Shown here in pieces: positions 19,727 to 34,043 of a stretch of DNA of 64,000 nucleotides (position 1 is its first letter; every line of letters starts with the position of its first letter). The position numbers and the translations under genes were made by a program. The stretch comes from Corallococcus caeni. GTDB taxonomy: Bacteria; Myxococcota; Myxococcia; Myxococcales; Myxococcaceae. The DNA lies in contig NZ_BTTW01000008.1 in assembly GCF_036245865.1 (NCBI RefSeq), forward strand, positions 224,396 to 288,395, written 5' to 3'. The notes under the pieces are model-generated. The model made no database searches, was not told the DNA's origin, and worked only from the letters and a program-made list of their open reading frames with translations.

Positions 19727-21382
19727 CTAGAGGTCGATATCGTACTGCGAACAGTATTGTCGGACCCTTGGACGTTCCGTTGCCGGGACCCGGGTCCATT
19801 GCGCCCGCGCATTCGCCAGGTCGTGCTGATGGCAGTACACGCGGGTGAGCAGCGAGAACGACAGGCCGGTAATCTTCGTGCGCTGGCTGCGCCGGATGTG
19901 ACGCAACGCTTCCGACGAGTTCGACGCGTCCAGCGCCTTCTGCGCGGACGCCAGGTCCTCGCGCACGCTGTCCGGCATCGACTCCGGGACGCCGCCACCG
20001 CGCGGCGCCTTCGCCCGGGTCGTGACGGCGGGCGGGTCCGTGGGCTCCACGGCCGGCCGCTTCTCCTCGGGAGCCGTCGGCTGCGGCGGCTGGGCAGCCG
20101 GTTCCACCACGGGCGGCTTCTGCTCCACGGGCGGCGTCACGGCCGCGACGGGCGCCGCCGCGACGGGGGCCGTGGGCGCCGGCGGATTCGCCGCGACGAG
20201 GGTGGGCGGGGGCGTGGCCGCGCCCTTCCAGAAGAAGGCGACGGCGAACGCGATGATGACCGCCAGGCCCACGGCCACGGCCACCGGCCACTTCGGGCGG
20301 GGGCGGGACAGGGGCTGCGCGGGCAGGGAGGCGGTCTGTGGCCCGGTGGGGGAGGCCTCGTGGCCGGCGTGGGGGCGCATGCCCACCGTGGGGATGTGCT
20401 CCTCCTGATCCGGCGGGCGCGACGCGGGCGGCGGGGACGTGGGGGCGGAGGGGCGCGTGCGCTCGTGCTTCGCCTCCGCGAGCGTCTGGAGCGGGCTGCC
20501 CGTCAGCTCCAGGATGAAGCTGCCCACGTCCGGGTAGCGGTCCTCCGGCTTCTTCGCCATCGCGCGGGTGATGGCCGCCACCACGTGCGGCGGCGTGCCC
20601 GGTGCCAGCGAAAGGAGCGGCGGCGGCTCCAGGTGGACGATTTGATAGATGAGTTCCGCGATGTTGTCGCCGGAGTAGGGCGGCCGTCCGGCGAGCATCT
20701 CGTAGACGATGCAGCCGAACGCGAACAGGTCCGTGCGCGCGTCCACGTTGCTGTTCTGGCCCATGGCCTGCTCAGGGGCCATGTACTGCGGCGTCCCCAT
20801 CAGCACCGAGTCCAGCGTCTGCACGGTGCGAGAGTCCACGAGCTTGGAGATGCCGAAGTCGAGCAGCTTCACGCGCTCGCCCACGACGCCGCCGGCCTCC
20901 GTGGGCACGAGGAACACGTTGCCCGGCTTCAGGTCGCGGTGCACCACGCCCGCGCGGTGCGCCGCCTGCAACGCCGCGCCCATCTGCCGCGCGATGGAGA
21001 GGACCTCCTCCAGCGGCAACTGCTTCTGCTTGCGCAGCCGGCGCGACAGGCCCTCGCCGCGCAGGTACTCCATCACCATGAAGGGCGTGCCGTCCTCCAG
21101 GGTGTCGAAGTCCAGCACCTCCACGATGTTCGGGTGCCCCAGCCGGGAGGCGATCTCCGCCTCGCGCCGGAAGCGCACCGCCACCTCTTCCGACAGCGCC
21201 TCCGCGCCGTGCAGCACCTTGATGGCGACCTGCTTGCCCGGCAGACGCAGGTGGCGGGCCAGGAACACCGCCCCCATGCCGCCCTTGCCCAGCACGGTGC
21301 CAATCTCATACGTGGCACGCAGGATCCGTCCCGTCGTCAACGGCTCGGACTGCACGGAGGTCGGTTCGGTGGGCTTTTGCAT
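19727..21382 (-). CDS. Ser/Thr protein kinase (Hanks-type) with Pro-rich linker, transmembrane segment and extracytoplasmic C-terminal domain
   Basis: GTVLGKGGMGAVFLARH ... AIKVL ... HRDLKPGNVFL ... DFGISKL ... APE. A transmembrane segment follows (WPVAVAVGLAVIIAFAVAFFW), then a C-terminal domain. Confidence 0.9.
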   Translation of the reverse strand: MQKPTEPTSVQSEPLTTGRILRATYEIGTVLGKGGMGAVFLARHLRLPGKQVAIKVLHGAEALSEEVAVRFRREAEIASRLGHPNIVEVLDFDTLEDGTPFMVMEYLRGEGLSRRLRKQKQLPLEEVLSIARQMGAALQAAHRAGVVHRDLKPGNVFLVPTEAGGVVGERVKLLDFGISKLVDSRTVQTLDSVLMGTPQYMAPEQAMGQNSNVDARTDLFAFGCIVYEMLAGRPPYSGDNIAELIYQIVHLEPPPLLSLAPGTPPHVVAAITRAMAKKPEDRYPDVGSFILELTGSPLQTLAEAKHERTRPSAPTSPPPASRPPDQEEHIPTVGMRPHAGHEASPTGPQTASLPAQPLSRPRPKWPVAVAVGLAVIIAFAVAFFWKGAATPPPTLVAANPPAPTAPVAAAPVAAVTPPVEQKPPVVEPAAQPPQPTAPEEKRPAVEPTDPPAVTTRAKAPRGGGVPESMPDSVREDLASAQKALDASNSSEALRHIRRSQRTKITGLSFSLLTRVYCHQHDLANARAQWTRVPATERPRVRQYCSQYDIDL

Positions 21383-22156: not shown

Positions 22157-22442
22157 ACCCCCGTGAATGTCGCGGGGGCAGGATGGGGAGGACCTCCGTT
22201 CACGGCCATGCGCGACTCAGCCGTTGCCACTGTGCCCGGCTGCACAGGCCGGGCAGGCAGGAGGCTAGGTAACGCCAGTCCTGACGCTCCGGAATGACTC
22301 ACGGCGTGTTTCACCGTTCCGCGTCATGACGCAGGAGGTGGGGTGTGGGGTGGAGACTGGATCTTTCTCATACATTGACAAAGGCATTGCGCCCCCGCGC
22401 ATCGTTGACAGTGAAACACCCGATGGTGTTTCGTGTTTCAAG

Positions 22443-23525
22443 ATGAACGGTTCACGGCGCGTCACTGTTCTCTCCCTGCACCGGGGTTCCGCGAGCATCG
22501 TTCGCGCCCTCGTGCCCCACTTCGATCTGCCTCCGGCGGAGCTCGCCGCGCGGCTGTTCCGCGCCCCCGCCGTGCTGGCGGGAGGGCTGCCCGAGGAGCT
22601 CGCCAGCAGCCTGTCGGAGGTGTTGGGCAACGCGGGCCTGCGCGTGGTCGTGGAGCCGGATGACGCGCCCCTTCCTCCACCCGCCGCGCGGACCTACGAC
22701 GTGGCGCTGTACCTGCGGGACGGCGGGCGCTTCCGCGACGTCTGCACGGAGCTGGCCGCCGTCCTGGGGTGTCCCCTGACGGACGCCGCCGCGGCGCTCT
22801 GCGCCACGCCTCCCACGGTGCTCGGCTCCGTCTCCCAGGCCACCGTGGACGCGCTCCAGGAGCGCTTCTCTCCGCTGGGCGCTGAGGTGGACGCCAGCCA
22901 CCCGCCCACGGCCCTCTATGACGTCTTCTCCACGGACACGGCCAGCCTCTCGGTGATCCGCCCGGTGCTGGAGTCGCAGGGCGTGACTCCGGCGGCGGTC
23001 CCCCTGGTGGCCCGGGACCTGTCGCACGAACAGGCGGAGCGCGTGTGGAGGGAGCTGGGCCCGCGGGGTGGGGTGCGGCTGTTGGACCATGCCTTCCAGC
23101 GGTTCGACGTGAGCCTCCTCGAGGCCCCCGCGGACGCTGGCTTCACGGAGCTGCTGGTGCGTGAGACGGGCATGCCGCTGGCGCTGGTGCCCAAGGTGCT
23201 CAAGCGTCTGCCGGTGGTGCTGCACACGGGGCTGTCGCGCGCGGACGTGGTGGCGCGCACCGCCCCGCTGGAGGCCGCGGGCGCGAAGCTGGCCGTGCAG
23301 CTCATCAACTTCCGCAGCTTCCGCCTGACGGTGGAGGACTCGAAGGACCCCGCCGGGGCCGCGGAGCTGCTGTCCACGGCGCTGGGCCTGCCCGCCAACG
23401 AGACGCGCACCGCGCTCTCCCGGCTGCCGCACACCTTCCATCCCGCGGTGGGGGACACGCGCGCGCGCTGGCTCGTCGCGGAGCTGCGGGCGCGTGGCAC
23501 GCGGACCTCCCTGGTGTCGCATTGA
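22443..23525 (+). CDS. Protein built from about five tandem ribosomal L7/L12 C-terminal-domain-like repeats; first gene of the candidate operon
   Basis: Repeats of LxxxLGxPxxxAxxLxxxxPxxVxxxVSxxxAxxLxxxLxxxGAxV(x)L (for example TELLVRETGMPLALVPKVLKRLPVVLHTGLSRADVVARTAPLEAAGAKLAVQL). The region 22326-22442 is lower GC and holds two TTGACA boxes and inverted repeats, so the start is placed at MNGSRRV (22443). The alternative start is 22326. Confidence 0.5.
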   Translation: MNGSRRVTVLSLHRGSASIVRALVPHFDLPPAELAARLFRAPAVLAGGLPEELASSLSEVLGNAGLRVVVEPDDAPLPPPAARTYDVALYLRDGGRFRDVCTELAAVLGCPLTDAAAALCATPPTVLGSVSQATVDALQERFSPLGAEVDASHPPTALYDVFSTDTASLSVIRPVLESQGVTPAAVPLVARDLSHEQAERVWRELGPRGGVRLLDHAFQRFDVSLLEAPADAGFTELLVRETGMPLALVPKVLKRLPVVLHTGLSRADVVARTAPLEAAGAKLAVQLINFRSFRLTVEDSKDPAGAAELLSTALGLPANETRTALSRLPHTFHPAVGDTRARWLVAELRARGTRTSLVSH

Positions 23526-24070
23526 GCGTCCCGGCGCTGCACTTCCGCGTGGCCGAACAGGGCAAGGTGTTCGCGCTGGCCGGCCGGCATGACGAGGCGC
23601 TGCGCCACTACCGCGAAGCGCTGCGGCTGGCCGCGCTCCAGGGCGGCTCCGACGTCTGCCAGCGTCACTATGCGTGGTGCGTGCTCGAGTCGCTGGAGCG
23701 CTCGGGGGCCCACGAGGCCGTCATCTCCTTCTGCCTGCGCGTGGAGGCCCACTACCAGCAACAGCCTCCCACGAGCGAGCTGGCCCTCCAGGACCTGGCC
23801 GCGCACCACGAGCGGCACGGGCTGGCGCTGGCGAAGCTGGGGCGCCTGTCCGAGGCGCGCACCCGGCTGGAGTCCGCGGTGGCGCTGGCTGGCGCGGGGC
23901 GCCTCCCGCTGTCGGAGCGGGTGCTGGGGTGGACGCGCGCCGGGCTGCACGTGGACGCGCGCCGCATCACGCTGGAGCAGGACCGTCACGCCTACTGGGT
24001 CGTCCGGCCCGACACCGTTCGTCCCGACGTCGCTGTCGCACTTCCTCCCGTTGCCTCACCACTGGGGTAG
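23522..24070 (+). CDS. TPR-like helical repeat protein
   Basis: EALRHYREALRLAALQGG ... LGRLSEARTRLESAVALA. The TTG start overlaps the upstream stop (ATTGA), suggesting translational coupling. Confidence 0.5.
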   Translation: MSVPALHFRVAEQGKVFALAGRHDEALRHYREALRLAALQGGSDVCQRHYAWCVLESLERSGAHEAVISFCLRVEAHYQQQPPTSELALQDLAAHHERHGLALAKLGRLSEARTRLESAVALAGAGRLPLSERVLGWTRAGLHVDARRITLEQDRHAYWVVRPDTVRPDVAVALPPVASPLG

Positions 24071-24073
24071 ACC

Positions 24074-26170
24074 ATGCCGAAAGCAGGGAAGATCCTCGCG
24101 GATCTCAACATCTCCGACTTCATCCGGGACATGGGGCTCGCCATCGCCGAGGCCCAGGCCAAGCTGGACACCAACAGCGTGGATCAGACGCTGCGCATGG
24201 GGCAGACCGTCCTGCCGGGCATGACGCAGAACCTGCTGTCGCTGGGGCTGCGGCCGGCCTTCTACCACTTCCAGTACGCCGACCTGGAGGTGAACCTCAA
24301 CGTCTACTACTCGACCACCGTCGACGTGGGCGTCAACTTCAACTACGACAACGAGAACGAGTCGAGCGAGTACAGCCTCGAGACGTCCTCCGCCAGCGGC
24401 AGCGCCACCATCACGGTGCAGGACGGTGAAGGCATTCCGCCCTACGCCTGTCTGGCATTGGTCGCCAACGCGCCGGGCCACCTCACGGTGGGCACCACCA
24501 GCTACGCGCTGGACGGCGGCGTGGGCCCCAACAGCACCGGCCTGCCCGTCGCCCGTCAGGACACGCTGTGGGAGACGGCGCAGGAGCTGCTCGTGGCCCT
24601 GCGCAACAACTCCGTCTGGACCAACCAGGCCACGGGGGACCTGCAGGGCATCTTCATGGACTGGGAGATGCAGTCGGGCGTCACCGCCAGCACCAACCGC
24701 CCCGACCTCTACGCCATCAACCGCTCCGTCATCACCGTGCGCACCTCGCCGCAGGCGGCGCCCGGCGACAACCTGGTGATCGCGCGGCTGGGCAGCGTGA
24801 CGCCCGCGCCCGCGCTGCTGCTGCCGGCCACCAACGGCACGCGCTACACCAGCGCCGCGGCGACGGTGGGCGCGGCGCTGGCGGACATCGGCCAGCAGGT
24901 GGACCCGGCGGCCTTCGTCGTCGTGTCGGGCGGTGACTGCAACCGGGCCATCTACTTCGACACCGACATCCACGACGTGCCCACCACCACCTACGGCACG
25001 GACCGCGAGCCCTCCGCCGTCCTCGACGCGGTGGCGGCGCTCCTGGCGGAGCACCCGTCCGCCTCGCTGACGCTGGAGGGCTGGGCGGACCAGCGCTCCC
25101 CGCCGGCCCCCGGCTACAACCAGCGGCTGTCCCAGAAGCGCGCTGACTTCGTCCTGCGTGCGCTGACGTCGCGGGGCGTGGCGGCCAGCAGGCTCACGGC
25201 CCGGGGCATGGGCGCGACGGTCAGCTTCAGCAGCTCGGACCTGGCGGCCAACCGGCGCGTCGTCTTCCAGTTCTCCGGCGTGCCCGCGGCGCTGGTGGCC
25301 CGCACCGTCGCGGCCACGGCCGCCTTCGACCCCACGGGGACGGACCGGGAGGCCCGCATCGTCCCGCGCACGCGCGCCCCGGCGAACGCGCCCACCACGG
25401 CCGTCGTCACCTTCCGCGGCACGGACTTCACGCAAGGCACCGCCTCCCAGGGCACCACCTTCGCGGTGGGCGCCACCGCCGAGTCCACCGCCGCCAACCT
25501 GGCCCGCGCCATCCGCGACGCCAACGCCAACACCGCCTTCGGCGCCTTCGCGCGCGGGGACCGCGTCTACCTGTACGGCACCGGCGACCACGCCCTGTTC
25601 ACCCTGTTCGCGCGCACGCCCACCGCGCCGGCCCTGTCCGCCGCGGGCTCCATCCGCGTGGCCCGCCGCTTCGGCGACGGCCGCCCACCGGCCACGCCCC
25701 AGCCGCGCGACACCCTCGTCATCGACAACGTGCAGCTGGTGGCCGTGGAGGCCGGCGTCGCCCCGCAGCCAGGGCAGTTCACGCTGGGGGTGACGGGCGC
25801 GGACACGGCCCGCAACCTGGCCGCCGCCATCACGGCGGGCTCCAGCTCCGGCCTGCTGGCCGCGGGCCTCCAGGCCCAGTCCGCGGGCAACATCGTCACC
25901 GTCTCCGGCCCCTCCGGCACCATGCTGGGCACCAGCAACCCCGCCGCCTTCCTGCTGTCGGGGACGCGCATCGGCGGCAGGCCGTCCGCGGACCGCGAGG
26001 AGAGCTCCGAGCGCGAGCTTCGCGCCCTCAACGTGGATGCGCACCTGGCGGTGAAGTACGAGCTGAGCGTGTCCGGCAGCTCCACCATCAAGGCCCGCCT
26101 CGTGGCCGTGCCCGCGCCGCCCCAGTTCCTCCAGGCCATCGGCGACTACCTCGAGCGCTGGTACCCGTAA
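24074..26170 (+). CDS. Paralog A (698 aa) of a novel small-protein family, with an OmpA-like peptidoglycan-binding domain and a large Ala/Gly/Thr-rich region inserted between the family core and the family C-terminal strand
   Basis: Family N-terminal block (LADLNISDFIRDMGLAIAEAQAKLDTNSVDQ ... LLSLGLRPAFYHFQYADLEVNLNVYYSTT). Mid-region OmpA-like motif (LTLEGWADQRSPPAPGYNQRLSQKRADFVLRALTSRGVAASRLTARGMG). The extreme C-terminus carries the family strand (HLAVKYELSVSGSSTIKARLVAVPAPPQFLQ). No signal peptide. Confidence 0.75.
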   Translation: MPKAGKILADLNISDFIRDMGLAIAEAQAKLDTNSVDQTLRMGQTVLPGMTQNLLSLGLRPAFYHFQYADLEVNLNVYYSTTVDVGVNFNYDNENESSEYSLETSSASGSATITVQDGEGIPPYACLALVANAPGHLTVGTTSYALDGGVGPNSTGLPVARQDTLWETAQELLVALRNNSVWTNQATGDLQGIFMDWEMQSGVTASTNRPDLYAINRSVITVRTSPQAAPGDNLVIARLGSVTPAPALLLPATNGTRYTSAAATVGAALADIGQQVDPAAFVVVSGGDCNRAIYFDTDIHDVPTTTYGTDREPSAVLDAVAALLAEHPSASLTLEGWADQRSPPAPGYNQRLSQKRADFVLRALTSRGVAASRLTARGMGATVSFSSSDLAANRRVVFQFSGVPAALVARTVAATAAFDPTGTDREARIVPRTRAPANAPTTAVVTFRGTDFTQGTASQGTTFAVGATAESTAANLARAIRDANANTAFGAFARGDRVYLYGTGDHALFTLFARTPTAPALSAAGSIRVARRFGDGRPPATPQPRDTLVIDNVQLVAVEAGVAPQPGQFTLGVTGADTARNLAAAITAGSSSGLLAAGLQAQSAGNIVTVSGPSGTMLGTSNPAAFLLSGTRIGGRPSADREESSERELRALNVDAHLAVKYELSVSGSSTIKARLVAVPAPPQFLQAIGDYLERWYP

Positions 26171-26179
26171 GGATCCTCC

Positions 26180-26683
26180 ATGCCCGGAAACAACACCACG
26201 CAGGGCCAGCGCGCGATGATGACGGTGCTGGACGCGCCGCTGCCGGAGCTCATCGAGAGGCTCGGGCGCGCGGTGGCGGACGCGCAGCACGCGCTGGACG
26301 TCAACTCGCTCGACATCGCGAAGCGCATGTCCGAGCGCACCGTGGACCTGGGCGACGGGCAGCTGTGGAGCCTGCTCGCGCTCGGCTTCACGCCCACGTT
26401 CTACGCCTTCGCCGAGGCCACGTTGGAGGCGAAGCTCACCTTCACCATCCGCGAGTCCACGGAGTTCTCCGTGGGCGGCGGCGCGACGGGCGGCATGGCC
26501 GGCATCTTCTCCGTGACGGTGAACGCCGAGTACAGCCGCAAGTACGGCTTCGAGGTGCAGGGCGCCAGCTCCATCGCCGCGCGGCTGGTGTCGCTGCCCC
26601 CGCCTGCCCGCCTGCACCAGCTGCTCAACGAGCTCGCCGCCCAGCCGCCCGCCCCCGCGGCCTCCACCAACACTTCCGCCTGA
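26180..26683 (+). CDS. Paralog B (167 aa) of the novel family (minimal core form)
   Basis: VLDAPLPELIERLGRAVADAQHALDVNSLD ... LLALGFTPTFYAFAEATLEAKLTFTIREST ... YSRKYGFEVQGASSIAARLVSLPPPARL. Confidence 0.75.
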   Translation: MPGNNTTQGQRAMMTVLDAPLPELIERLGRAVADAQHALDVNSLDIAKRMSERTVDLGDGQLWSLLALGFTPTFYAFAEATLEAKLTFTIRESTEFSVGGGATGGMAGIFSVTVNAEYSRKYGFEVQGASSIAARLVSLPPPARLHQLLNELAAQPPAPAASTNTSA

Positions 26684-26705
26684 AGCGCGCAAGGACCCAG
26701 ACACC

Positions 26706-27278
26706 ATGCCCAACGTCGGTCAGGAACTGCTGAACGTCCCCATGGGGGACATGATTCGTGAGATGGCGACCGCCATCGCCGAGGCGCAGCTTGAGCTGGA
26801 CAAGAGCGGGATGCTCGTCGCGGAGATGATGAGCGGCGAGGCGCTGCTGCGGGACGCGGACGGGAACATCCAACTGGACGGCTCCGGCAAGCCCATCCGC
26901 GTGGACACCAAGGTGTCCTTCGCGGGCACGCCCTCGTCCATGATGGAGCTGGGGTTCGCGCCGAACTTCTACCAGTTCGTGGACACCATCATCGAGGTGA
27001 AGATCGCCATCAAGATGACGGAGAGCGTGGAGAGCAAGGTGGCGACGCAGACCACGCGCCAGACGGCCGGCGGGCTGCGCCTCTTCAAGCGCGGCGGCGC
27101 GCCCCAGGCCGTGGTGACGACGGTGGATGCCAGCTACACGCGCAAGTACGACTACAGCGTGGAGGGCTCCAGCCTGCTGCGCACGAAGCTGGTGCCCGTG
27201 CCTCCTCCGGCCCTCTTCGAGGAGCGGGTGCGCGCGCTCATCGCGGCCAGGGCCGGCACCGTCACCCCCACGAAGTAG
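26706..27278 (+). CDS. Paralog C (190 aa) of the novel family
   Basis: LLNVPMGDMIREMATAIAEAQLELDKSGM ... ELGFAPNFYQFVDTIIEVKIAIKMTES ... YTRKYDYSVEGSSLLRTKLVPVPPPALFEE. Confidence 0.75.
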   Translation: MPNVGQELLNVPMGDMIREMATAIAEAQLELDKSGMLVAEMMSGEALLRDADGNIQLDGSGKPIRVDTKVSFAGTPSSMMELGFAPNFYQFVDTIIEVKIAIKMTESVESKVATQTTRQTAGGLRLFKRGGAPQAVVTTVDASYTRKYDYSVEGSSLLRTKLVPVPPPALFEERVRALIAARAGTVTPTK

Positions 27279-27296: not shown

Positions 27297-27887
27297 ATGT
27301 CCACCAACTCCATTGGTCAGGATCTGCTCAACGTCCCCTTCGGGGAGATGGTCCGCAACCTGGGCAACGCCATCGCGGATGCCCAGTACGCGCTGGACAG
27401 CTCGTCGCTGAAGATCGCCCAGCTCATGGCGGGCTACCGCATCGACGACAGCGGCAACGCCGTGCGGGACGGGGCCGGCTTCGTGAAGCTGGGGACCACC
27501 GAGTACCCGCTGCTGCTGCTCGGCTTCACGCCCACGTTCTACCAGTTCGTGGAGACCATCATCGAAGTGAAGATGGAGATCTCCATGCACGAGTCCACCG
27601 ACGACTCGACCCAGACGCGGGACCGCAAGGTGGACCGCGACAAGGGTATCCTCACCACGCTGGTGAAGGGCCACAAGAGCCACGTCACCACGGTCACGGC
27701 CAAGCACTCGCAGAAGTACAGTTACTCCGCCGAGGGCTCCAGCCTCATCCGCACCAAGCTGGTGCCCATCCCTCCACCGGCGGCGCTCCAGCAGATCTGC
27801 GCGGAGATCGCCAAGGGCCTCAAGGGCACCGCGGAAGGCCAGGCCGTCAGCGGGAAGATCGACACCGCCGTGGGCAACGTCACCTGA
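27297..27887 (+). CDS. Paralog D (196 aa) of the novel family
   Basis: LLNVPFGEMVRNLGNAIADAQYALDSSSL ... LLLGFTPTFYQFVETIIEVKMEISMHES ... HSQKYSYSAEGSSLIRTKLVPIPPPAALQQ. Confidence 0.75.
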   Translation: MSTNSIGQDLLNVPFGEMVRNLGNAIADAQYALDSSSLKIAQLMAGYRIDDSGNAVRDGAGFVKLGTTEYPLLLLGFTPTFYQFVETIIEVKMEISMHESTDDSTQTRDRKVDRDKGILTTLVKGHKSHVTTVTAKHSQKYSYSAEGSSLIRTKLVPIPPPAALQQICAEIAKGLKGTAEGQAVSGKIDTAVGNVT

Positions 27888-27906: not shown

Positions 27907-28860
27907 ATGTCACACGTCCGTTGGGAAGACCTGCTGGAGGAGGACGCCGCCGAGGCCGCCGGCAACGCGGGCGCGTCCGCTCCGGTTCCGGGAGCGGGGG
28001 CATCCGCCGCGGCGTCCGTGGTGCCCTCCCTTGAGCAGGTGGCCGCCAGCGACCCGGCGTTGGCGGAGCTGCTGAAGGAGCGCCGGCAGCTCGAAGACAC
28101 GATGAAGGCGCTGAGCGGCGTGCAGGAGGCGCCCGTCGACGAGCGGCTGGCGAAGCAGTTCCCCGTCGTCCAGCACACGCCGGAGTCGCGCATCGCGGAG
28201 CGCAAGCAGCACGAGCGGGACACCGCGCGGCGGCTGCTGGAGCAGAAGCTGTACGCCCGGCGCCGGACGGAGGCGGAGGAGGCGGAGCGGGTGGAGCAGC
28301 TGCGCCGCGAGCGCCTGGAGGCGGGCAAGGCGGGCCGGCGCAAGGCGCAGCGGCAGCAGACGCTGCGCCAGCAGTGGGCGACCAAGGCACGCGAGCGCGC
28401 GAAGCTCGCGACGCGGCTGGCGGAGCGCGTCCTGGAGACTCCGGGCAGGGGCCGCATGAAGCTCGGAGACGTGGGCTCCGCGACGAGGGACGCGGCCCGG
28501 CGGCTGTCGCACGCGGCGGAGGAGGCGCGCTCCGCGGCGCGCAAGCCGATGTCGCTGGTGAAGGGCCAGGCGCTGCCCTCCCTGGGAAACCTGGGACGGC
28601 GCGGCGGGCTCCAGGTTGGGAAGGTGGAGAAGGGGGTGGCGGTGGCGCGCGAGCTGTGGGGCATGAACCCCCGCTCGCTGGACACCGAGGCCCTGATGAT
28701 GCGCGGGCTGGCGATGGCCGGCATGGACATGGAGTCCATGGAGCAGCGGATGGACATGGAGATGGAGCGCGCCGGCATGGGCATGGACGACATGGACGCG
28801 CGCGACACGGCACGTGACGCGCAGCGGGCTCGCGGGCGCCAGGGAGCGCGGGATGAGTGA
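27907..28860 (+). CDS. Charged coiled-coil protein (Glu/Arg/Ala-rich) with Met-rich C-terminal tail
   Basis: Long heptad-like charged helix (KLYARRRTEAEEAERVEQLRRERLEAGKAGRRKAQRQQTLRQQWATKARERAKLATRLAERV). The C-terminus reads GLAMAGMDMESMEQRMDMEMERAGMGMDDMDARD (MxM motifs). Confidence 0.65.
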   Translation: MSHVRWEDLLEEDAAEAAGNAGASAPVPGAGASAAASVVPSLEQVAASDPALAELLKERRQLEDTMKALSGVQEAPVDERLAKQFPVVQHTPESRIAERKQHERDTARRLLEQKLYARRRTEAEEAERVEQLRRERLEAGKAGRRKAQRQQTLRQQWATKARERAKLATRLAERVLETPGRGRMKLGDVGSATRDAARRLSHAAEEARSAARKPMSLVKGQALPSLGNLGRRGGLQVGKVEKGVAVARELWGMNPRSLDTEALMMRGLAMAGMDMESMEQRMDMEMERAGMGMDDMDARDTARDAQRARGRQGARDE

Positions 28861-29518
28861 CACGACACAACAGGCGCAGGAGCTGTTCGGCACCCTGGAC
28901 GAGTACCTGCTGGAGCTGGCCGACGGCCTGGCGAAGGCCCAGGAGGAGCTGGGGGGCCTCTCCGCGGCCGGCGCGCCCGGCCGCCAGTTCACCTACTACG
29001 TGCCGAAGCTGGAGTTCGAGCTGCGCATGGACCTGCGGGTGGAGACGTCCAGCACCACCTCCGGAGCGCCGGTCAACGCGAAGATCCTGAAGATGCGGCC
29101 CGTGCGGCTGGCGGACGTGGCCTCGTCGCAGACGCAGACGGAGATTGTCAGCGTGATTCGCGGCAGCTTCGTCGCGGTGCCGGCCAACGAGGGCCTCCCT
29201 CCGGTGGTGCTCGACGCCCGCTGCGTCATCGGCGCCGGGGGCGTGCCGGGCGTGGTGGTGCGCGTGCGCAACGCGGCGGGGGAAGCCCTGCCGGGCGTGG
29301 AGGTGGAGTTCAACCTGGACCGGCGGACGACGCAGTCGCTGTCCGGCGTGGCGCCGCTGGCGGGCACGGACGTGGTGCTCGCGGTGGTGCGGACGGATGC
29401 TGCGGGTGAGGCGCGCACGACGCTGCGCCTGGCGGCCGGCGAGCGGGCCCGCTTCCTGGCGATCACGGTGGACGCGGCGTCGCGGACGCTGGCGCTGTCC
29501 TGCGAGGTGAGCCCGTGA
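28853..29518 (+). CDS. Paralog E (221 aa) of the novel family with a C-terminal beta-sandwich (CarboxypepD_reg/Big-like) domain
   Basis: LDEYLLELADGLAKAQEELGG ... RQFTYYVPKLEFELRMDLRVETSS ... TEIVSVIRGSFVAVPANEGLPP. A Big-like tail follows (VVRVRNAAGEALPGVEVEFNLD). The start ATG overlaps the upstream stop (ATGAGTGA). Confidence 0.65.
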   Translation: MSDTTQQAQELFGTLDEYLLELADGLAKAQEELGGLSAAGAPGRQFTYYVPKLEFELRMDLRVETSSTTSGAPVNAKILKMRPVRLADVASSQTQTEIVSVIRGSFVAVPANEGLPPVVLDARCVIGAGGVPGVVVRVRNAAGEALPGVEVEFNLDRRTTQSLSGVAPLAGTDVVLAVVRTDAAGEARTTLRLAAGERARFLAITVDAASRTLALSCEVSP

Positions 29519-30249
29519 AGGTCCGGGCCGTGTTCCTCAAGTCCACCGGAGTGCCCGCCGGCGGCATGAAGGTGGCGTGGTGGGTCCCGGCGAAGGCGGG
29601 GACGTTCGAGCTGCGCGACACCGGGGTGACGAACGCGGAGGGCGTGCTGGAGCTGGAGGTCAGCAGCGCCACCTTCGGCTCACACCTGCGGCTGGACTCC
29701 GCCGGGGTGGCCACCTTCCCGGTGAAGATGAGCAGCACCCTCATCGACTACGGGACGCTGGTGCTCCTGGAGCCCGCGCGCGAGGGCATCCGCGCCGTGT
29801 CTTCCGGCGCGATTCGGTCCGCCGTTACGGAGCCCACCCAGGAGACGGCCACGCCGCTCGTGCTCTCCGATCGCCTGAAGACGGCGGGGCAGCAGATCGA
29901 GTCGGTGCGCGCGTCGCTGACGACGGTGCGGCTGAGCACCGTCCGCGTGCGGTGGACCGAGACGACCCCCGATGGCGTGACTGAGGCGGAGGCGCAGTTC
30001 GTCGAGCAGTCTCCCACCGCGCCCGCGACGGGCGACGCGCCCGCTCGCGAGGTGCCGGACTTCCGGGGGCTGACGGCCTCGGCGGCCCGCCGGCGCGCGG
30101 CGGAGGCGGGGGTCCGGGTGGGGCTGGCGCCCGTCTTCGTCAAGGAGGCCGGCCAGTACGGCCGCGTGCTGCGGCAGGTGCCGGAGTCCGGCGCCATTCA
30201 GGCCTCGGCTTCCGTGCAGTTGTTCATCGGCCAGGCAATGGAGGGCTGA
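29515..30249 (+). CDS. Beta-sandwich (CarboxypepD_reg-like) plus C-terminal PASTA-domain protein
   Basis: N-terminal KVRAVFLKSTGVPAGGMKVAWWVPAKAGTFELRDTGVTNAEGVLELEV. C-terminal PASTA-like REVPDFRGLTASAARRRAAEAGVRVGLAPVFVKEAGQYGRVLRQVPESGAIQASASVQLFIGQA. The GTG start overlaps the upstream stop (GTGA). Confidence 0.65.
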   Translation: MKVRAVFLKSTGVPAGGMKVAWWVPAKAGTFELRDTGVTNAEGVLELEVSSATFGSHLRLDSAGVATFPVKMSSTLIDYGTLVLLEPAREGIRAVSSGAIRSAVTEPTQETATPLVLSDRLKTAGQQIESVRASLTTVRLSTVRVRWTETTPDGVTEAEAQFVEQSPTAPATGDAPAREVPDFRGLTASAARRRAAEAGVRVGLAPVFVKEAGQYGRVLRQVPESGAIQASASVQLFIGQAMEG

Positions 30250-30252
30250 ACC

Positions 30253-30921
30253 ATGGCGGATTCGAATGACGTCCCCCAGTTGGAGGCACTGAGCGCACCG
30301 CTGGGCGCGTTGATCTCCGCGGTGGGCCGCGGCGTGGCGGAGGCCCAGCGGGAGCTGGATGCGGAGACCATCGAGCGGATCCGCGAGCTCTACGCCTCGG
30401 ACGAGGACCTGGCGGTGGAGCTGCAGCGCATCGGCTACCGGCCGACCTGGTACCACATCCCCGAGGCCGAGGCGGAGATCGCCGTGGCGCTGTCCATCAC
30501 CTCGGAGGAGCGCTCGGAGGGGAGGACGCGGCTGAAGATGTACGGCGCGCCCCTGGACGCCAGCTACACCAACCGCTTCGCCTACAGCCTGACGGCGCAG
30601 TCGCGGCTGAAGTTCCGCGTGGTGCCGGTGCCGCCCTCGCCCCAGGCGGAGGCGCTGGTGGTGGTGCCGGCGGTGGTGGGCAGGACGGTGGCCGACGCGC
30701 GGGCGCTGCTGTCCGCCATCGGCGTGCCGCACCGGTTCCCCAACGGCGCGGCGGACGCCGCGGTGGTCACCTCGGCCTCGGTCGGGCCGGGGGCGCTGCT
30801 GCCGCGCGGCACGGAGCTGGTGCTCACCGTGCAAGCGACCGGGGGAGGGAAGCTGCCTCCCACCAGCACGCCCACCCGCTCGCCGGTCCTGGAGCCCTCG
30901 ACGGCGGGGACGTTGAAGTGA
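30253..30921 (+). CDS. Paralog F (222 aa) of the novel family with a C-terminal PASTA-like domain
   Basis: LGALISAVGRGVAEAQRELDAETIERI ... IGYRPTWYHIPEAEAEIAVALSITSEE ... DASYTNRFAYSLTAQSRLKFRVVPVPPSPQAE. A PASTA-like domain follows (VVPAVVGRTVADARALLSAIGVPHRF...GTELVLTVQ). Confidence 0.7.
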   Translation: MADSNDVPQLEALSAPLGALISAVGRGVAEAQRELDAETIERIRELYASDEDLAVELQRIGYRPTWYHIPEAEAEIAVALSITSEERSEGRTRLKMYGAPLDASYTNRFAYSLTAQSRLKFRVVPVPPSPQAEALVVVPAVVGRTVADARALLSAIGVPHRFPNGAADAAVVTSASVGPGALLPRGTELVLTVQATGGGKLPPTSTPTRSPVLEPSTAGTLK

Positions 30922-30958: not shown

Positions 30959-31375
30959 ATGAGCGACGCCCTCGACTTGGATGCCCTGCTGGTGGACCTG
31001 CGTGAGTCGCTCGCGCGGGTCCACGCGCGGCTCGGGGCCGGCCCTTTCGTGCTGGGGCCGGTGGAGCTGGAGCTGCGCGGGCAGGTTACCGCGAGCGGGA
31101 CGGGCATGCGGTTCACGCCCGGGGGCTCCGGCGAGGTGCGGGCCGTCTTCGTCCAGACGGGCCCCGAGGCGGCGCCACCCACCGCGCCGGAGTTGCTGGG
31201 ACTGACGCGGAGTGCCGCCGTGCGCAGGGCGCGCCTGGCCGGCGCCTCGCTGGAGGTGACGGACGTGCCCTGCTTGTCGCCGGAGCAGGCCGGACGGGTG
31301 TGCTGGCAGCGCCCCGCGGCGGGCGGGCCCCTGCGGGAGGGCCGCATGTCCGTGGGACTCTACGTCTCCCGGTGA
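30959..31375 (+). CDS. Small PASTA-domain protein (138 aa)
   Basis: The C-terminus ELLGLTRSAAVRRARLAGASLEVTDVPCLSPEQAGRVCWQRPAAGGPLREGRMSVGLYVS matches the PASTA pattern. No signal peptide. Confidence 0.6.
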   Translation: MSDALDLDALLVDLRESLARVHARLGAGPFVLGPVELELRGQVTASGTGMRFTPGGSGEVRAVFVQTGPEAAPPTAPELLGLTRSAAVRRARLAGASLEVTDVPCLSPEQAGRVCWQRPAAGGPLREGRMSVGLYVSR

Positions 31376-31481
31376 GCGCGGCCCCTGAACGCCGGGACGG
31401 TGGTCGCGTCCGAACACCTTGAGGCCGCCGCCGCGCGATTTTTCACGGTGGCCCCAGCGCCAACCCCTAGAGTCGGGCCCG

Positions 31482-34043
31482 ATGAGTGCCTCCGCCGACA
31501 CCCGCGCCCCGCTCGCCGCCCTGCTGCCGAAGCCCGGCGAGCCCCCTCTCGATGCCGACGAGATCCTCAACCGCTTCGTGAGCTACGTCGCCACGAATGG
31601 CCTGAGCCTGTACTCCGCCCAGGAGGAGGCCATCCTGGAGCTCTTGAGCGACAAGCACCTGTTCCTCAAGACGCCCACGGGCTCCGGCAAGTCGCTGGTG
31701 GCCATGGCGCTCCACTTCAAGGCCATGGCCGAGGGCAAGGTGTCGTTCTACACGTGCCCCATCAAGGCGCTGGTGAACGAGAAGTTCTTCGCGCTCTCCA
31801 AGGCGTTCGGCCCGGAGAACGTGGGCATGCTCACGGGCGACGCGTCCATCAACCGCGAGGCGCCCATCCTCTGCTGCACGGCGGAGATTTTGTCGAACCT
31901 CGCGCTGCGCGACGCCTCCGCGCGCGTGGACGCGGTGGTGATGGACGAGTTCCACTACTACTCCGACAAGGACCGCGGAGTGGCCTGGCAGATTCCGCTG
32001 CTGGCGCTGCCGAAGACGCAGTTCCTGCTGATGTCCGCCACGCTGGGCGACACGCACGTCATCGAGCAGAGCCTGGAGAAGCTCACCGGCCGCGAGGTGG
32101 CCACGGTGCGCAGCTCCGAGCGCCCCGTGCCGCTGGACTTCGACTACCGCGAGGTGCCGCTGCACGAGACCATCCAGGACCTCATCGCGCGCGGGAAGTA
32201 CCCCGTGTACCTGGTGAACTTCACGCAGCGGGCCGCGGCCGAGCAGGCGCAAAACCTGATGTCCGTGGACTTCAACACCAAGGAGGAGAAGGAGGAGATC
32301 CGCCAGGCCCTCCTGGACGCCCCCTTCGACACGCCCTACGGCAAGGACTTCCAGCGCTACCTGCGCCACGGCATCGGCATGCACCACGCGGGCCTCTTGC
32401 CCAAGTACCGGCTGCTGGTGGAGAAGCTGGCGCAGCAGGGCCTGCTCAAGGTCATCAGCGGCACGGACACGCTGGGCGTGGGCGTGAACATCCCCATCCG
32501 CACGGTGCTCTTCACGCAGCTGTTCAAGTTCAACGGCGAGAAGCTGGCGACCTTGAGCGTGCGCGACTTCAAGCAGATCGCCGGCCGCGCGGGCCGCAAG
32601 GGCTTCGACACCGAGGGCAGCGTGGTGGCGCAGGCCCCGGAGTACATGATCGAGAACATCCGCCAGGCGGCGAAGGAGGCCGCGGGCAAGAAGAAGTCTC
32701 CCAAGGCGAAGCCGCCGCAGAAGGGCTTCGTGCAGTACGACAAGAGCACCTTCGAGCGGCTCCAGAACGGACTGCCGGAGCCGCTGGAGTCGCGCTTCGA
32801 CGTGAGCCACGGCCTCCTGCTCAACCTGCTCCAGAGCGACAAGACCGAGGGCAGCGGCGGCTACAAGCGGCTGGTGCAGTTGGTGATGCGCTCGCACAGC
32901 TCCGACTACACGAAGAAGAAGCTGCTCAAGGACGCGGCGATGTACTTCCGCACGCTGCGCGACGCGGGCATCGTGAAGGTCGTCCAGTGGGAGAAGCACT
33001 CCGCCACGGTGGAGGTGTCCGAGGACCTGCAGCGCGACTTCAGCCTCAACCACACGCTGTCCCTGTACCTGCACGAGACGCTGGAGCTGCTGGACCCCAC
33101 GCTGGAGACGTACGCGCTGGACGTCGTCACGCTGGTGGAGTCCATCCTGGAGAACCCGGACGTGGTGCTGTACGCGCAGCTGCACCAGTTGAAGGGGGAG
33201 AAGATCCAGGAGATGAAGGCGCGGGGCGTGGAGTACGACGACCGCATGGAGGAGCTGGAGAAGCTGGAGTGGCCCAAGCCGAACCGCGAGTTCGTCTATG
33301 GCACCTTCAACGCCTTCGCCAAGAAGCACCCGTGGGTGGGCGAGGAGAACATCCGGCCCAAGTCCATCGTCCGGGACATGTTCGAGCGCTTCATGTCCTT
33401 CCACGACTACGTGCGCGAGTACGGCCTGCAGCGCAGCGAGGGCGTGCTCCTTCGCTACGTGGGAGACGTCTACAAGTCGCTGGTGCAGACGGTGCCGGAG
33501 AAGTTCCGCAACGAGGACCTGGACGACATCATCGACCACCTGCGCGCGACGCTGCGGCAGGTGGACTCCAGCCTCCTGGACGAGTGGGAGCGGATGCGCA
33601 ACCCGGAGGCCCCGGTCGAAGTGAAGCCGGTGGTGGACCTCAAGCCCAAGGAGCTCACGGAGGACCCCAAGGCCTTCGCCGCGCGCGTGCGCGAGGAGCT
33701 GCACCGGCTGCTGCGCGCGCTGGGCCAGCGCCGCTATCTGGACGCGCTGGGCATGCTGGACAACGCGCTGGGCGAGTGGACCGCGCCGAAGCTGGAGCAG
33801 GCCATGGCGCCGTACTTCGAGGAGCACAAGCTGGTGGTGCTCACGCCCCAGGCGCGCAAGCCGGCGAACACACAGCTCAAGGAGGCGGGCACGCGTCAGT
33901 GGGAGGCCCAGCAGCGCATCATGGACCCCGAGGGCCATGGGGACTGGGTCATCGACTGCGAGATCGACCTGCGCGGCCGGCGCATGGACGACGGCCCCAT
34001 CCTGATGCTGCGCCGCATTGGCGGCATGGCCGCCTGGTCGTAG
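31482..34043 (+). CDS. DEAD/DEAH-box helicase with a C-terminal DUF3516-type extension
   Basis: Walker A (KTPTGSGKSLVA), DEAH-like DEFH box (VVMDEFHYY), SAT (LMSATLG), and motif VI (QIAGRAGRKGFD). A long C-terminal helical region follows. It lies 106 nt downstream of the paralog operon on the same strand. The start was trimmed to the ATG at 31482. Confidence 0.9.
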   Translation: MSASADTRAPLAALLPKPGEPPLDADEILNRFVSYVATNGLSLYSAQEEAILELLSDKHLFLKTPTGSGKSLVAMALHFKAMAEGKVSFYTCPIKALVNEKFFALSKAFGPENVGMLTGDASINREAPILCCTAEILSNLALRDASARVDAVVMDEFHYYSDKDRGVAWQIPLLALPKTQFLLMSATLGDTHVIEQSLEKLTGREVATVRSSERPVPLDFDYREVPLHETIQDLIARGKYPVYLVNFTQRAAAEQAQNLMSVDFNTKEEKEEIRQALLDAPFDTPYGKDFQRYLRHGIGMHHAGLLPKYRLLVEKLAQQGLLKVISGTDTLGVGVNIPIRTVLFTQLFKFNGEKLATLSVRDFKQIAGRAGRKGFDTEGSVVAQAPEYMIENIRQAAKEAAGKKKSPKAKPPQKGFVQYDKSTFERLQNGLPEPLESRFDVSHGLLLNLLQSDKTEGSGGYKRLVQLVMRSHSSDYTKKKLLKDAAMYFRTLRDAGIVKVVQWEKHSATVEVSEDLQRDFSLNHTLSLYLHETLELLDPTLETYALDVVTLVESILENPDVVLYAQLHQLKGEKIQEMKARGVEYDDRMEELEKLEWPKPNREFVYGTFNAFAKKHPWVGEENIRPKSIVRDMFERFMSFHDYVREYGLQRSEGVLLRYVGDVYKSLVQTVPEKFRNEDLDDIIDHLRATLRQVDSSLLDEWERMRNPEAPVEVKPVVDLKPKELTEDPKAFAARVREELHRLLRALGQRRYLDALGMLDNALGEWTAPKLEQAMAPYFEEHKLVVLTPQARKPANTQLKEAGTRQWEAQQRIMDPEGHGDWVIDCEIDLRGRRMDDGPILMLRRIGGMAAWS

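Follow-up and report, generated by a model that had tools for sequence, protein, structure and literature searches.

Gene A of Corallococcus caeni, which lies in the 64,000-nucleotide stretch of contig NZ_BTTW01000008.1 analyzed here (the window), codes for a protein in which the small helix/β-hairpin core of a paralogous family is split by a large inserted module containing an OmpA-like domain (Table 1). The protein is genuine and widely conserved, and the domain insertion is strongly supported. In our main reading, to which we assign a probability of about 0.55, A is the subunit that bears a peptidoglycan-binding domain in an assembly of several paralogs. The gene belongs to a conserved ten-gene operon with six or seven paralogs of a single family, whose products appear in the databases only as "OmpA family protein" or "hypothetical."

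Table 1. Genes of the operon and segments of protein A, with positions in the window
Feature	Position	Strand	Length	Remarks
g1, first conserved operon gene	22326..23525	+	399 aa	L7/L12-CTD-like repeats, subthreshold
TPR protein, second conserved operon gene	23522..24070	+	182 aa	
A	24074..26170	+	698 aa	ATG start; split helix/β-hairpin core carrying an inserted module of ~545 aa
A, N-terminal half of family core	24074..24388	+	residues 1-105	Amphipathic helix ~13-41; strand β1 from ~62
A, R1 and R2	24386..24973	+	residues 105-300	Two folded α/β domains upstream of the OmpA-like domain; pLDDT ~70-88
A, OmpA-like/Pal-like domain (putatively peptidoglycan binding)	24974..25288	+	residues 301-405	Pfam, Foldseek, phmmer
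A, repeat R3	25289..25633	+	residues 406-520	hhalign with R4; pLDDT ~80-89
A, repeat R4	25634..25978	+	residues 521-635	hhalign with R3; pLDDT; shared motif F.xGxTAxxTAxNLAxAI
A, C-terminal half of family core	26018..26170	+	residues 649-698	Strand β2, VPAPP motif, terminal helix
B, paralog	26180..26683	+	167 aa	hhalign B-C and B-D, 100%
C, paralog, most conserved member	26706..27278	+	190 aa	1648 homologs
D, paralog	27297..27887	+	196 aa	hhalign C-D, 100%, E 3e-90
Charged coiled-coil-type protein	27907..28860	+	317 aa	Positionally conserved
F, paralog: family core and C-terminal Ig-like domain	28853..29518	+		hhalign E-F, 97.2%; B-F, 93%
G: Ig-like domain and C-terminal PASTA	29515..30249	+		In orthologs, a variable coiled coil separates these domains
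E, paralog: family core and C-terminal PASTA	30253..30921	+	222 aa	hhalign to A2, 98%, E 2.7e-13; PASTA, E 1e-6
H: weak Trypco2-like N terminus and PASTA	30959..31375	+	138 aa	Only ~16 loci

The two ends of A form a split family core

Both ends of A are homologous to the small paralogs encoded immediately downstream. In BLASTP comparisons, residues 1 to 87 matched the N termini of B, C, and D (E values of 3e-11 to 2e-7), and residues 651 to 691 matched their C termini (2e-6 to 2e-5). Against the family profile A2, hhalign gave 98.8% (E value of 5.6e-17) for the N-terminal part and 97% (8.4e-11) for the C-terminal part, the latter aligning with residues 135 to 180 of C. With residues 1 to 105 and 649 to 694 matching the respective halves of B, C, and D, the protein opens with the family helix and hairpin and ends with the family strand, as an earlier note on this DNA had read it: the N-terminal part has the helix and strand 1 homology by which members are recognized and the C-terminal part has the homology to strand 2, the VPxPP motif, and the final helix.

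The AF2 model of C (pLDDT of 75.8) has a helix at residues 13 to 42, two hairpin strands of about 30 residues each (88 to 118 and 136 to 165), and a second helix at residues 169 to 185. On the basis of this model, the family is predicted to adopt a fold with an N-terminal amphipathic helix, a very long amphipathic two-stranded hairpin, a Pro-rich turn (VPxPP), and a short C-terminal helix. Hydrophobic and polar faces alternate along the strands of both A and C, and the tip loop of B is Gly rich. In the AF2 model of full-length A, the core has a pLDDT of 20 to 45 and is not resolved, so that a confident hairpin is predicted for C only and the pairing of the two halves of A is not directly modeled. 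Searches with the cores of A, B, C, and D retrieved no match in Pfam, NCBIfam, PADLOC, or PHROGs, and the core family as a whole is represented neither in the first three of these nor in the PDB. Big_1 was found in 26 of 48 members of the F group.

The insertion maps to the predicted hairpin tip

Comparison with proteins in the same operon slot delimits the insert. In a 173-aa ortholog from Oceanobacter, residues 12 to 125 correspond to residues 5 to 105 of A and residues 123 to 163 to residues 651 to 693. The N- and C-terminal segments abut in this protein, and residues ~106 to 650 of A are therefore an insertion. Insert-free orthologs with abutting segments occupy the slot in other phyla as well, and when mapped by hhalign onto the AF2 model of C, the insertion point falls in the low-confidence tip loop (residues 119 to 135) of the hairpin. 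The earlier proposal of a domain insertion preserving both halves of the fold is upheld by both observations. Proteins of the A slot have a bimodal length distribution, with 36 small (109 to 282 aa) and 43 giant (403 to 872 aa) versions, and among the paralog slots loops of more than 300 aa occur only in this one. About half of the systems are without the OmpA insert, and the inserts found in the tip loop across the orthologs are of at least two kinds.

The unusual length of A is the one feature that by itself would speak for a sequencing or assembly artifact that had fused two or three genes, namely, those for a small paralog and for an OmpA protein and a further fragment. However, GC3 is 0.95 to 0.98 across all segments of the gene, indicating one frame with no frameshift, and 14 full-length homologs of 686 to 698 aa share the architecture in independent assemblies, including complete genomes. 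Further, the 43 giants of the A slot come from other genomes, and of the 150 top-ranking representative clusters, 106 are at least 500 aa long; giants of 524 to 872 aa are spread over Alpha- and Gammaproteobacteria, Bacteroidota, and Myxococcota. Together, these findings exclude a gene fusion or sequencing error, and we give an artifact practically no credence.

The insert contains an OmpA-like domain and further folded domains

The OmpA-like peptidoglycan-binding motif that had been noticed inside A is confirmed by profile and structure searches: PF00691 matches residues 314 to 393 with 44.3 bits against a cutoff of 27.2 (E value of 2.4e-11), and a Foldseek search of the A model against the PDB returned 77 matches with E values of at most 1e-3, with TM scores of 0.80 to 0.84 to Pal structures (0.80 for Pal 4g4v). 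The segment has a pLDDT of 74 to 89, and phmmer matched it to YiaD, PorE, and Pal. Like the domains of Escherichia coli Pal, YiaD, and the C-terminal domain of Acinetobacter baumannii OmpA, residues 301 to 405 retain the fold and the GxxD...NxxLSxxRA...NRRV motif, in which G336, D339, N349, L352, and R356, together with NRRV, vary little or not at all. The putative ligand-binding residues D339 and R356 correspond to the Asp and Arg that contact the diaminopimelate moiety in OmpA-like domains (AbOmpA structures 3td3-3td5); they are invariant in 15 close homologs, show at least 90% conservation among 30 distant homologs, and are aligned to YiaD and PorE. The domain probably binds peptidoglycan. 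Among 30 nonredundant giants, 26 matched PF00691, always at residues ~290 to 400. The domain of A does not form the C terminus of a secreted lipoprotein, a porin, or a stator but is nested in a hairpin loop.

The rest of the insert is also predicted to be folded, with regular secondary structure and a pLDDT of ~70 to 90 over residues 109 to 620. R3 and R4 align with each other in hhalign (96.9%; E value of 1.5e-10), revealing a tandemly duplicated domain of ~110 aa, to which R1 is weakly similar (2-3e-3); the R1/R2 segment is conserved in the alignment A1. The earlier note had described ~400 aa of A as a long low-complexity T/A/G-rich region, which would amount to an intrinsically disordered spacer. 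Residues 406 to 645 do contain 20% Ala, 12% Thr, and 11% Gly (43% in all), and their entropy of 3.63 bits is somewhat reduced. However, the entropy drops under 2.5 bits in just a single window of 20 aa, the segment is ~67% identical between Corallococcus and Archangium, and the pLDDT values and the R3/R4 homology likewise speak against a spacer. Orthologous inserts of lower-GC hosts are not rich in these residues (a fraction of 0.19 to 0.25, versus 0.34 here), and the Ala/Gly/Thr richness of the insert reflects a genomic GC content of 72%. A disordered spacer is therefore very improbable; of the architecture first described, the split core, the OmpA-like motif, and the insertion stand, and the low-complexity label has to be dropped.

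In a Foldseek search of the A model against the PDB and BFVD, the OmpA domain was the sole match, leaving R1 to R4 without an assignment. The idea that R3/R4 are Flagellin_IN modules found no support: Pfam Flagellin_IN gave no match, and the best PDB matches of the R-domain profile (A4), to "IN-motif" regions of FliD (9gsx and 6sih), were nonsignificant (E value of 0.026).

The operon products lack export signals

No signal peptide, lipobox, or transmembrane helix was found in any operon product, A included. The N terminus of A is the family helix; the maximal 19-residue Kyte-Doolittle score of the protein is 1.47, there is no signal-peptide-like segment, and the protein shows none of the marks of the extracytoplasmic location of OmpA-like domains. 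How the OmpA and PASTA domains would reach the sacculus has no ready explanation, which is a difficulty for the wall-binding arm suggested in the earlier note. This combination of putative peptidoglycan-binding domains and no export route constitutes a puzzle of topology.

A conserved and undescribed operon of paralogs

The ten genes of the operon code, in order, for g1, the TPR protein, A, B, C, D, the coiled-coil protein, F, G, and E. Orthologs fill each of the paralog slots, in this fixed order, in at least 72 of 84 loci from many phyla, and A keeps its place after the TPR gene and before B-C-D in at least 72 loci. The first gene, g1, is present in 74 to 75 loci (Ribosomal_L12, 24.5 bits against a GA of 25.9), and PASTA domains occur on E and G together in 52 of 67 loci. 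The operon is found in at least 238 bacterial species from more than eight phyla, and none of its products is an enzyme. Strict co-occurrence suggests that A coassembles with its paralogs. A flanking kinase and helicase were considered as members of the system and rejected, being conserved in only two to three loci; a phage or plasmid origin of the operon was also rejected, with no phage match and a single plasmid match. Literature searches on Trypco2, or on PASTA plus OmpA plus defense, yielded no description of the operon. Its function is unassigned in the databases, and the system is conserved yet undescribed.

One could conceive of the products as a weapon that is assembled in the cytoplasm and released by lysis or another route, with the OmpA, PASTA, and Ig-like domains binding exposed foreign peptidoglycan and the amphipathic hairpins attacking the membrane. 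The lack of signal peptides recalls tailocins, these modules are typical surface-binding decorations, and the operon is overrepresented among taxa that prey on other cells or degrade polymers, for example, Myxococcota and Saccharophagus; in Nitrincola, moreover, a gene coding for Amidase_2 and SH3_3 lies directly downstream. But the amidase is not conserved at other loci, many hosts are not predators, the products have no similarity to phage proteins, and the 64-kb window has no lysis cassette. We consider an extracellular weapon quite unlikely.

Relationship to the Pepco/Trypco2 proteins

The closest analog of the core family is Pepco/Trypco2, although homology is not demonstrable. Pepco consists of a helix, a hairpin, and a Pro/charged tail and forms β-barrel oligomers, experimentally observed as stable, SDS-resistant 9- to 10-mers (doi:10.1101/2025.11.14.688446). 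The AF2 model of C agrees with this published description in its amphipathic helix, long amphipathic hairpin, and Pro/charged tail, and the order of elements in the family is that of Pepco (Trypco1/Trypco2; PF19631), namely, an N-terminal amphipathic helix, two amphipathic strands of ~25 to 30 residues, a tip loop, and the tail. In contrast to Pepco, the operon core has an additional loop separating the helix from strand 1, the proteins bear Ig-like and putative peptidoglycan-binding appendages, six to seven dedicated paralogs take the place of one gene, and no sensor NTPase is encoded. Likewise, no adjacent trypsin- or caspase-like protease was found among the conserved neighbors in the 84 loci.

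A to E have no significant sequence or profile similarity to Pepco. The PF19631 profile matched none of A, B, C, D, E, 90 orthologs of C, and 30 giants, and H reached 18.3 bits against a GA of 24.2. When compared by hhalign with SsPepco (from the supplement of the above-cited study) and 92 homologs, an alignment of limited sensitivity given that it is Streptomyces only, B, C, D, and E scored below 1%, F scored 7.7%, and H scored 2.6%. Homology of A to E to Pepco is thus not detectable. There is a chain of weak similarity, from the family to F (97%), from F to H (60%), and from F and H to Trypco2 by the above hhalign scores and a best Pfam E value of 5.5e-4.

One alternative is a cytoplasmic, Pepco-like latent pore or effector in which the OmpA-like insert (in A) and the PASTA domains (in E, G, and H) would serve not as anchors but as sensors, binding soluble muropeptides or peptidoglycan precursors in the cytoplasm and so gating the assembly, for example upon envelope damage or phage lysis. 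It would account for the missing export signals, and fusions of Pepco-associated proteases with sensor domains that bind peptidoglycan have been reported (doi:10.1101/2025.11.14.688446). Moreover, UDP-MurNAc-pentapeptide, a soluble precursor, is a ligand of Pal-type domains (PDB 2aiz), and the sporadic phyletic distribution, shaped by horizontal transfer, is like that of accessory or conflict systems. Against it, there is no PADLOC match, the flanks examined are not defense islands, the operon does not code for a protease or another trigger, the recycling of muropeptides in the cytoplasm of Gram-negative bacteria is constitutive, and half of the systems are devoid of the OmpA insert. Such a sensor is on balance unlikely.

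Proposed assembly

Returning to the main reading, A as a subunit of a multiparalog assembly, we infer the oligomerization, ligand, cellular location, and biological role of that assembly as follows. The hairpin of A, though split, would be intact, with strand 1 at residues ~62 to 95 and strand 2 at residues ~650 to 680, and its distal tip loop would hold the folded module of ~545 residues, comprising the two α/β domains, the OmpA-like domain, and the two ~110-aa repeats. The hairpins of A, B, C, D, E, and F may pair laterally to form a hetero-oligomeric β-sheet or β-barrel resembling that of Pepco/Trypco2, to which A would contribute two ordinary strands while projecting the OmpA-like arm from the distal rim. 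This arm and the PASTA domains of E and G might tether or target the assembly to peptidoglycan or muropeptide ligands. In the predicted geometry, the insert of A is at the hairpin tip and the PASTA domain of E at the opposite (base) end, an arrangement that is awkward for a membrane-spanning barrel.

A more specific version, which we put forward only tentatively, is that the ten-gene operon codes for an undescribed nanostructure, a hetero-oligomeric β-barrel or tube of six to seven helix/hairpin paralogs lacking export signals, enzymes, and NTPases. It would be tied to peptidoglycan by the OmpA arm nested in the hairpin tip of A and by the PASTA arms of G and E, borne on coiled-coil stalks that differ in length. 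It could be either a new envelope-associated machine or a protease-independent, multisubunit relative of the Pepco pore. Working out the system could extend the newly described Pepco class of β-barrel formers or bring to light an envelope structure of a new kind.

If the assembly model is true, a small self-assembling β-hairpin subunit carries a 545-residue module at its tip with its assembly competence kept, and the tip loop, given the different inserts it holds among orthologs, would be a natural display site. In this respect, A is reminiscent of flagellin and the hook-associated proteins, in which the conserved termini of the chain together make up the polymer core and the large variable domains inserted between them face outward. 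As in flagellin, the insertion may be present, absent, or of another type among the orthologs of A, but the core is a β-hairpin rather than a coiled coil and the operon is not accompanied by an export apparatus.

The split core of gene A

The 698-aa protein A is the product of a single gene, neither fused nor mis-sequenced: signs of frameshift or fusion are absent, and GC3 is uniform at 0.95-0.98 in all segments. The window (GC content ~72%) matches Corallococcus, as the gene for paralog C is 100% identical to that of C. exercitus and 96-97% identical to those of other Corallococcus. The stop codon of a TPR gene lies 4 nt upstream of gene A. Among the long antisense ORFs of the region, the 885-aa one that covers gene A is a shadow ORF produced by the high GC content, recognizable as such by a codon signature mirroring that of A. 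Databases already hold A under the label "OmpA family protein," and we found no description in the literature of its split architecture, host family, or operon.

BLASTP aligned residues 1-87 of A to the N termini of B, C, and D, helix/β-hairpin paralogs from the same operon, and residues 651-691 to their C termini. Comparison of an alignment of A homologues (A1; 15 sequences) with a family profile (A2; 90 sequences) placed residues 1-81 of A on 1-106 of C (98.8%, E = 5.6e-17) and residues 649-694 on 135-180 (97%, E = 8.4e-11). Both ends of A thus belong to the family core, as the earlier note had proposed. In the AF2 model of C (pLDDT 75.8), a helix (13-42) and small excursions (45-77) precede two strands of ~30 residues each (88-118 and 136-165), which are connected by a low-confidence loop (119-135) and followed by a helix (169-185). 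On both strands of C and A, hydrophobic residues alternate with polar or charged ones. On the basis of this model and the alignments, the tip loop of the C-type hairpin is predicted to be the site replaced by the insert in A. In the AF2 model of full-length A the core is at pLDDT 20-45, so it is the homology to C that supports the pairing of its halves. Family members also vary in length at a second site, which lies between the N-terminal helix and strand 1 and owing to which the C-slot proteins of loci L014-L080 range from 159 to 323 aa.

Domains of the insert

The OmpA-like domain of A scores 44.3 bits against a Pfam cut-off of 27.2, has sequence matches in YiaD, PorE, and Pal, and resembles the Pal fold (TM 0.80-0.84), confirming the OmpA-like motif originally noticed in the sequence. 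Residues G336, D339, N349, L352, S353, and R356, together with the NRRV motif, are invariant in the close homologues of A1 and near-invariant in 30 distant homologues.

The only part of the earlier observation on A that does not hold is the description of the Ala/Gly/Thr-rich region as low complexity. The bias of residues 406-645 is mild (20% Ala, 12% Thr, and 11% Gly; entropy, 3.63 bits), with only one 20-aa window under 2.5 bits, and the region is ~67% identical between Corallococcus and Archangium. Regular α/β domains are predicted by AF2 across residues 109-620 (pLDDT 70-90). Segments R3 (406-520) and R4 (521-635) are repeats that are homologous to each other (96.9%, E = 1.5e-10), and residues 105-200 are weakly similar to both. 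The combined Ala, Gly, and Thr fraction is 0.19-0.25 in orthologous inserts from lower-GC hosts versus 0.34 in A. The insert thus consists of two α/β domains, the OmpA-like domain, and, after it, the two R repeats. The best PDB matches of the R profile fell in the IN-motif regions of FliD, the flagellar cap protein, and were not significant (E = 0.026).

Distribution and age of the insertion

Full-length homologues of A number 14 (686-698 aa, identity down to 31%), and 238 species were found to have a relative of C when each GTDB species was represented by a single genome. At the 79 loci where the gene preceding B (the A slot) was readable, it is small in 36 (109-282 aa) and giant in 43 (403-872 aa, mostly 575-600 aa). 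In the small orthologues, the counterparts of A 5-105 and A 651-693 either abut or overlap, e.g., residues 12-125 and 123-163 in Oceanobacter (L011). Both halves of the core were detected in 386 family ORFs, and among these, loops of >300 aa are confined to A-slot genes. A whole-library search with residues 1-108 of A retrieved 206 clusters at 50% identity; in 106 of the best 150 of these, the protein has at least 500 aa and is matched at its N terminus. The small orthologues with abutting ends and the 14 full-length homologues bear out the proposal of a domain insertion that preserves both core halves. Insertion into the family core is well supported by these sequence comparisons, and the event is an old one.

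Pfam OmpA was detected in 26 of 30 nonredundant giants, always at approximately residues 290-400. In a neighbor-joining tree of the concatenated core, the OmpA giants form one clade, the small forms another, and giants without OmpA (L019, L026, and L043; 411-560 aa) a third. The separation of the two kinds of giants suggests that the tip loop has taken at least two kinds of insert, and conflict between the tree and taxonomy points to horizontal transfer. The giants of the third clade appear to hold a second insert type at the same site.

Relationship to Pepco

The nearest described counterpart of the operon system is Pepco (Trypco1/2), whose 117 aa comprise an amphipathic helix, then a long hairpin and a Pro/charged tail; it is activated through protease cleavage, and its barrels are SDS-resistant 9-10-mers (10.1101/2025.11.14.688446). 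We took the SsPepco sequence from the supplement of that study and gathered 92 Trypco2 homologues. Profile comparison with these revealed no similarity for B, C, D, or the PASTA-bearing paralog E (<1%) and weak similarity for F (7.7%) and the PASTA protein H (2.6%); Pfam Trypco2 weakly matched 7 of 48 F/H orthologues (best E = 5.5e-4). Hence, membership in Pepco/Trypco2 is not established. The resemblance is architectural, and the transitive connection of the A-E family with Trypco2, which runs via F and H, is tenuous.

Operon organization

The conserved order of genes is g1, TPR, A, B, C, D, a charged coiled-coil protein, F, G, and E. The first product, g1 (~375 aa), has a subthreshold L7/L12-CTD match; in the window it seems to be built of repeated units resembling that C-terminal domain, and its L084 orthologue likewise matches the Pfam Ribosomal_L12 family faintly. 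F is a sixth helix/hairpin family member (hhalign: E-F, 97.2%; B-F, 93%). Its listed GTG start at 28814 probably overextends the ORF; with the ATG at 28853 as the start, F overlaps the gene before it by 8 nt. The coiled-coil protein, which is highly charged, is conserved in position and, only within clades, in sequence. H was found in only ~16 of 84 loci.

Coassembly of A with its paralogs and wall binding are plausible, and we infer both. The operon products include no enzyme, whether NTPase, protease, or other, and none has a signal peptide or TM helix; the lack of any export signal is an open contradiction for wall binding by A.

The operon flanks vary between genomes, and the Nitrincola endolysin-like gene is not conserved at other loci. 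E combines the family core with PASTA, and G an Ig-like domain, a coiled coil of 0-500 aa, and PASTA. PASTA on both E and G accompanies small-A and giant-A systems alike, which makes peptidoglycan-type binding modules general to the system and the OmpA arm of A an optional extra. In other phyla, the coiled coil of G spans 100-500 aa between the Ig-like domain and PASTA, like a stalk of variable length ending in PASTA.

Features of the operon and related loci (window positions unless a locus is named)
Feature	Position	Strand	Remarks
Ser/Thr kinase	19727-21382	-	Flanks operon; adjacent in only 2-3 closely related genomes
g1	22326-23525	+	399 aa; Ribosomal_L12 24.5 bits vs 25.9 (just below)
Antisense shadow ORF	24056-26713	-	885 aa; GC1 0.965, GC3 0.659
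Gene A	24074-26170	+	ORF, 698 aa
R3 + R4	25289-25978	+	Common motif F.xGxTAxxTAxNLAxAI
Charged protein	27907-28860	+	317 aa; Met/Asp/Glu-rich tail MDMESMEQRMDMEMERAGMGMDDMD
F	28853-29518	+	Family member fused to Ig-like (Big_1-like) domain
G	29515-30249	+	244 aa; Ig-like + PASTA
H	30959-31375	+	138 aa; N-terminal Trypco2 (Pepco) 18.3 bits, GA 24.2, subthreshold; C-terminal PASTA
Large helicase	31419-34043	+	Flanks operon; adjacent in only 2-3 closely related genomes
G orthologue	L001 10101-11351		With coiled coil
G orthologue	L002 13150-15333		With coiled coil
Amidase_2+SH3_3 (endolysin-like) gene, Nitrincola	L001 11843-12706		Directly after operon
A-slot giant	L019 8231-9466		No detectable OmpA; separate clade
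A-slot giant	L026 7763-9445		No detectable OmpA; separate clade
A-slot giant	L043 7743-9425		No detectable OmpA; separate clade
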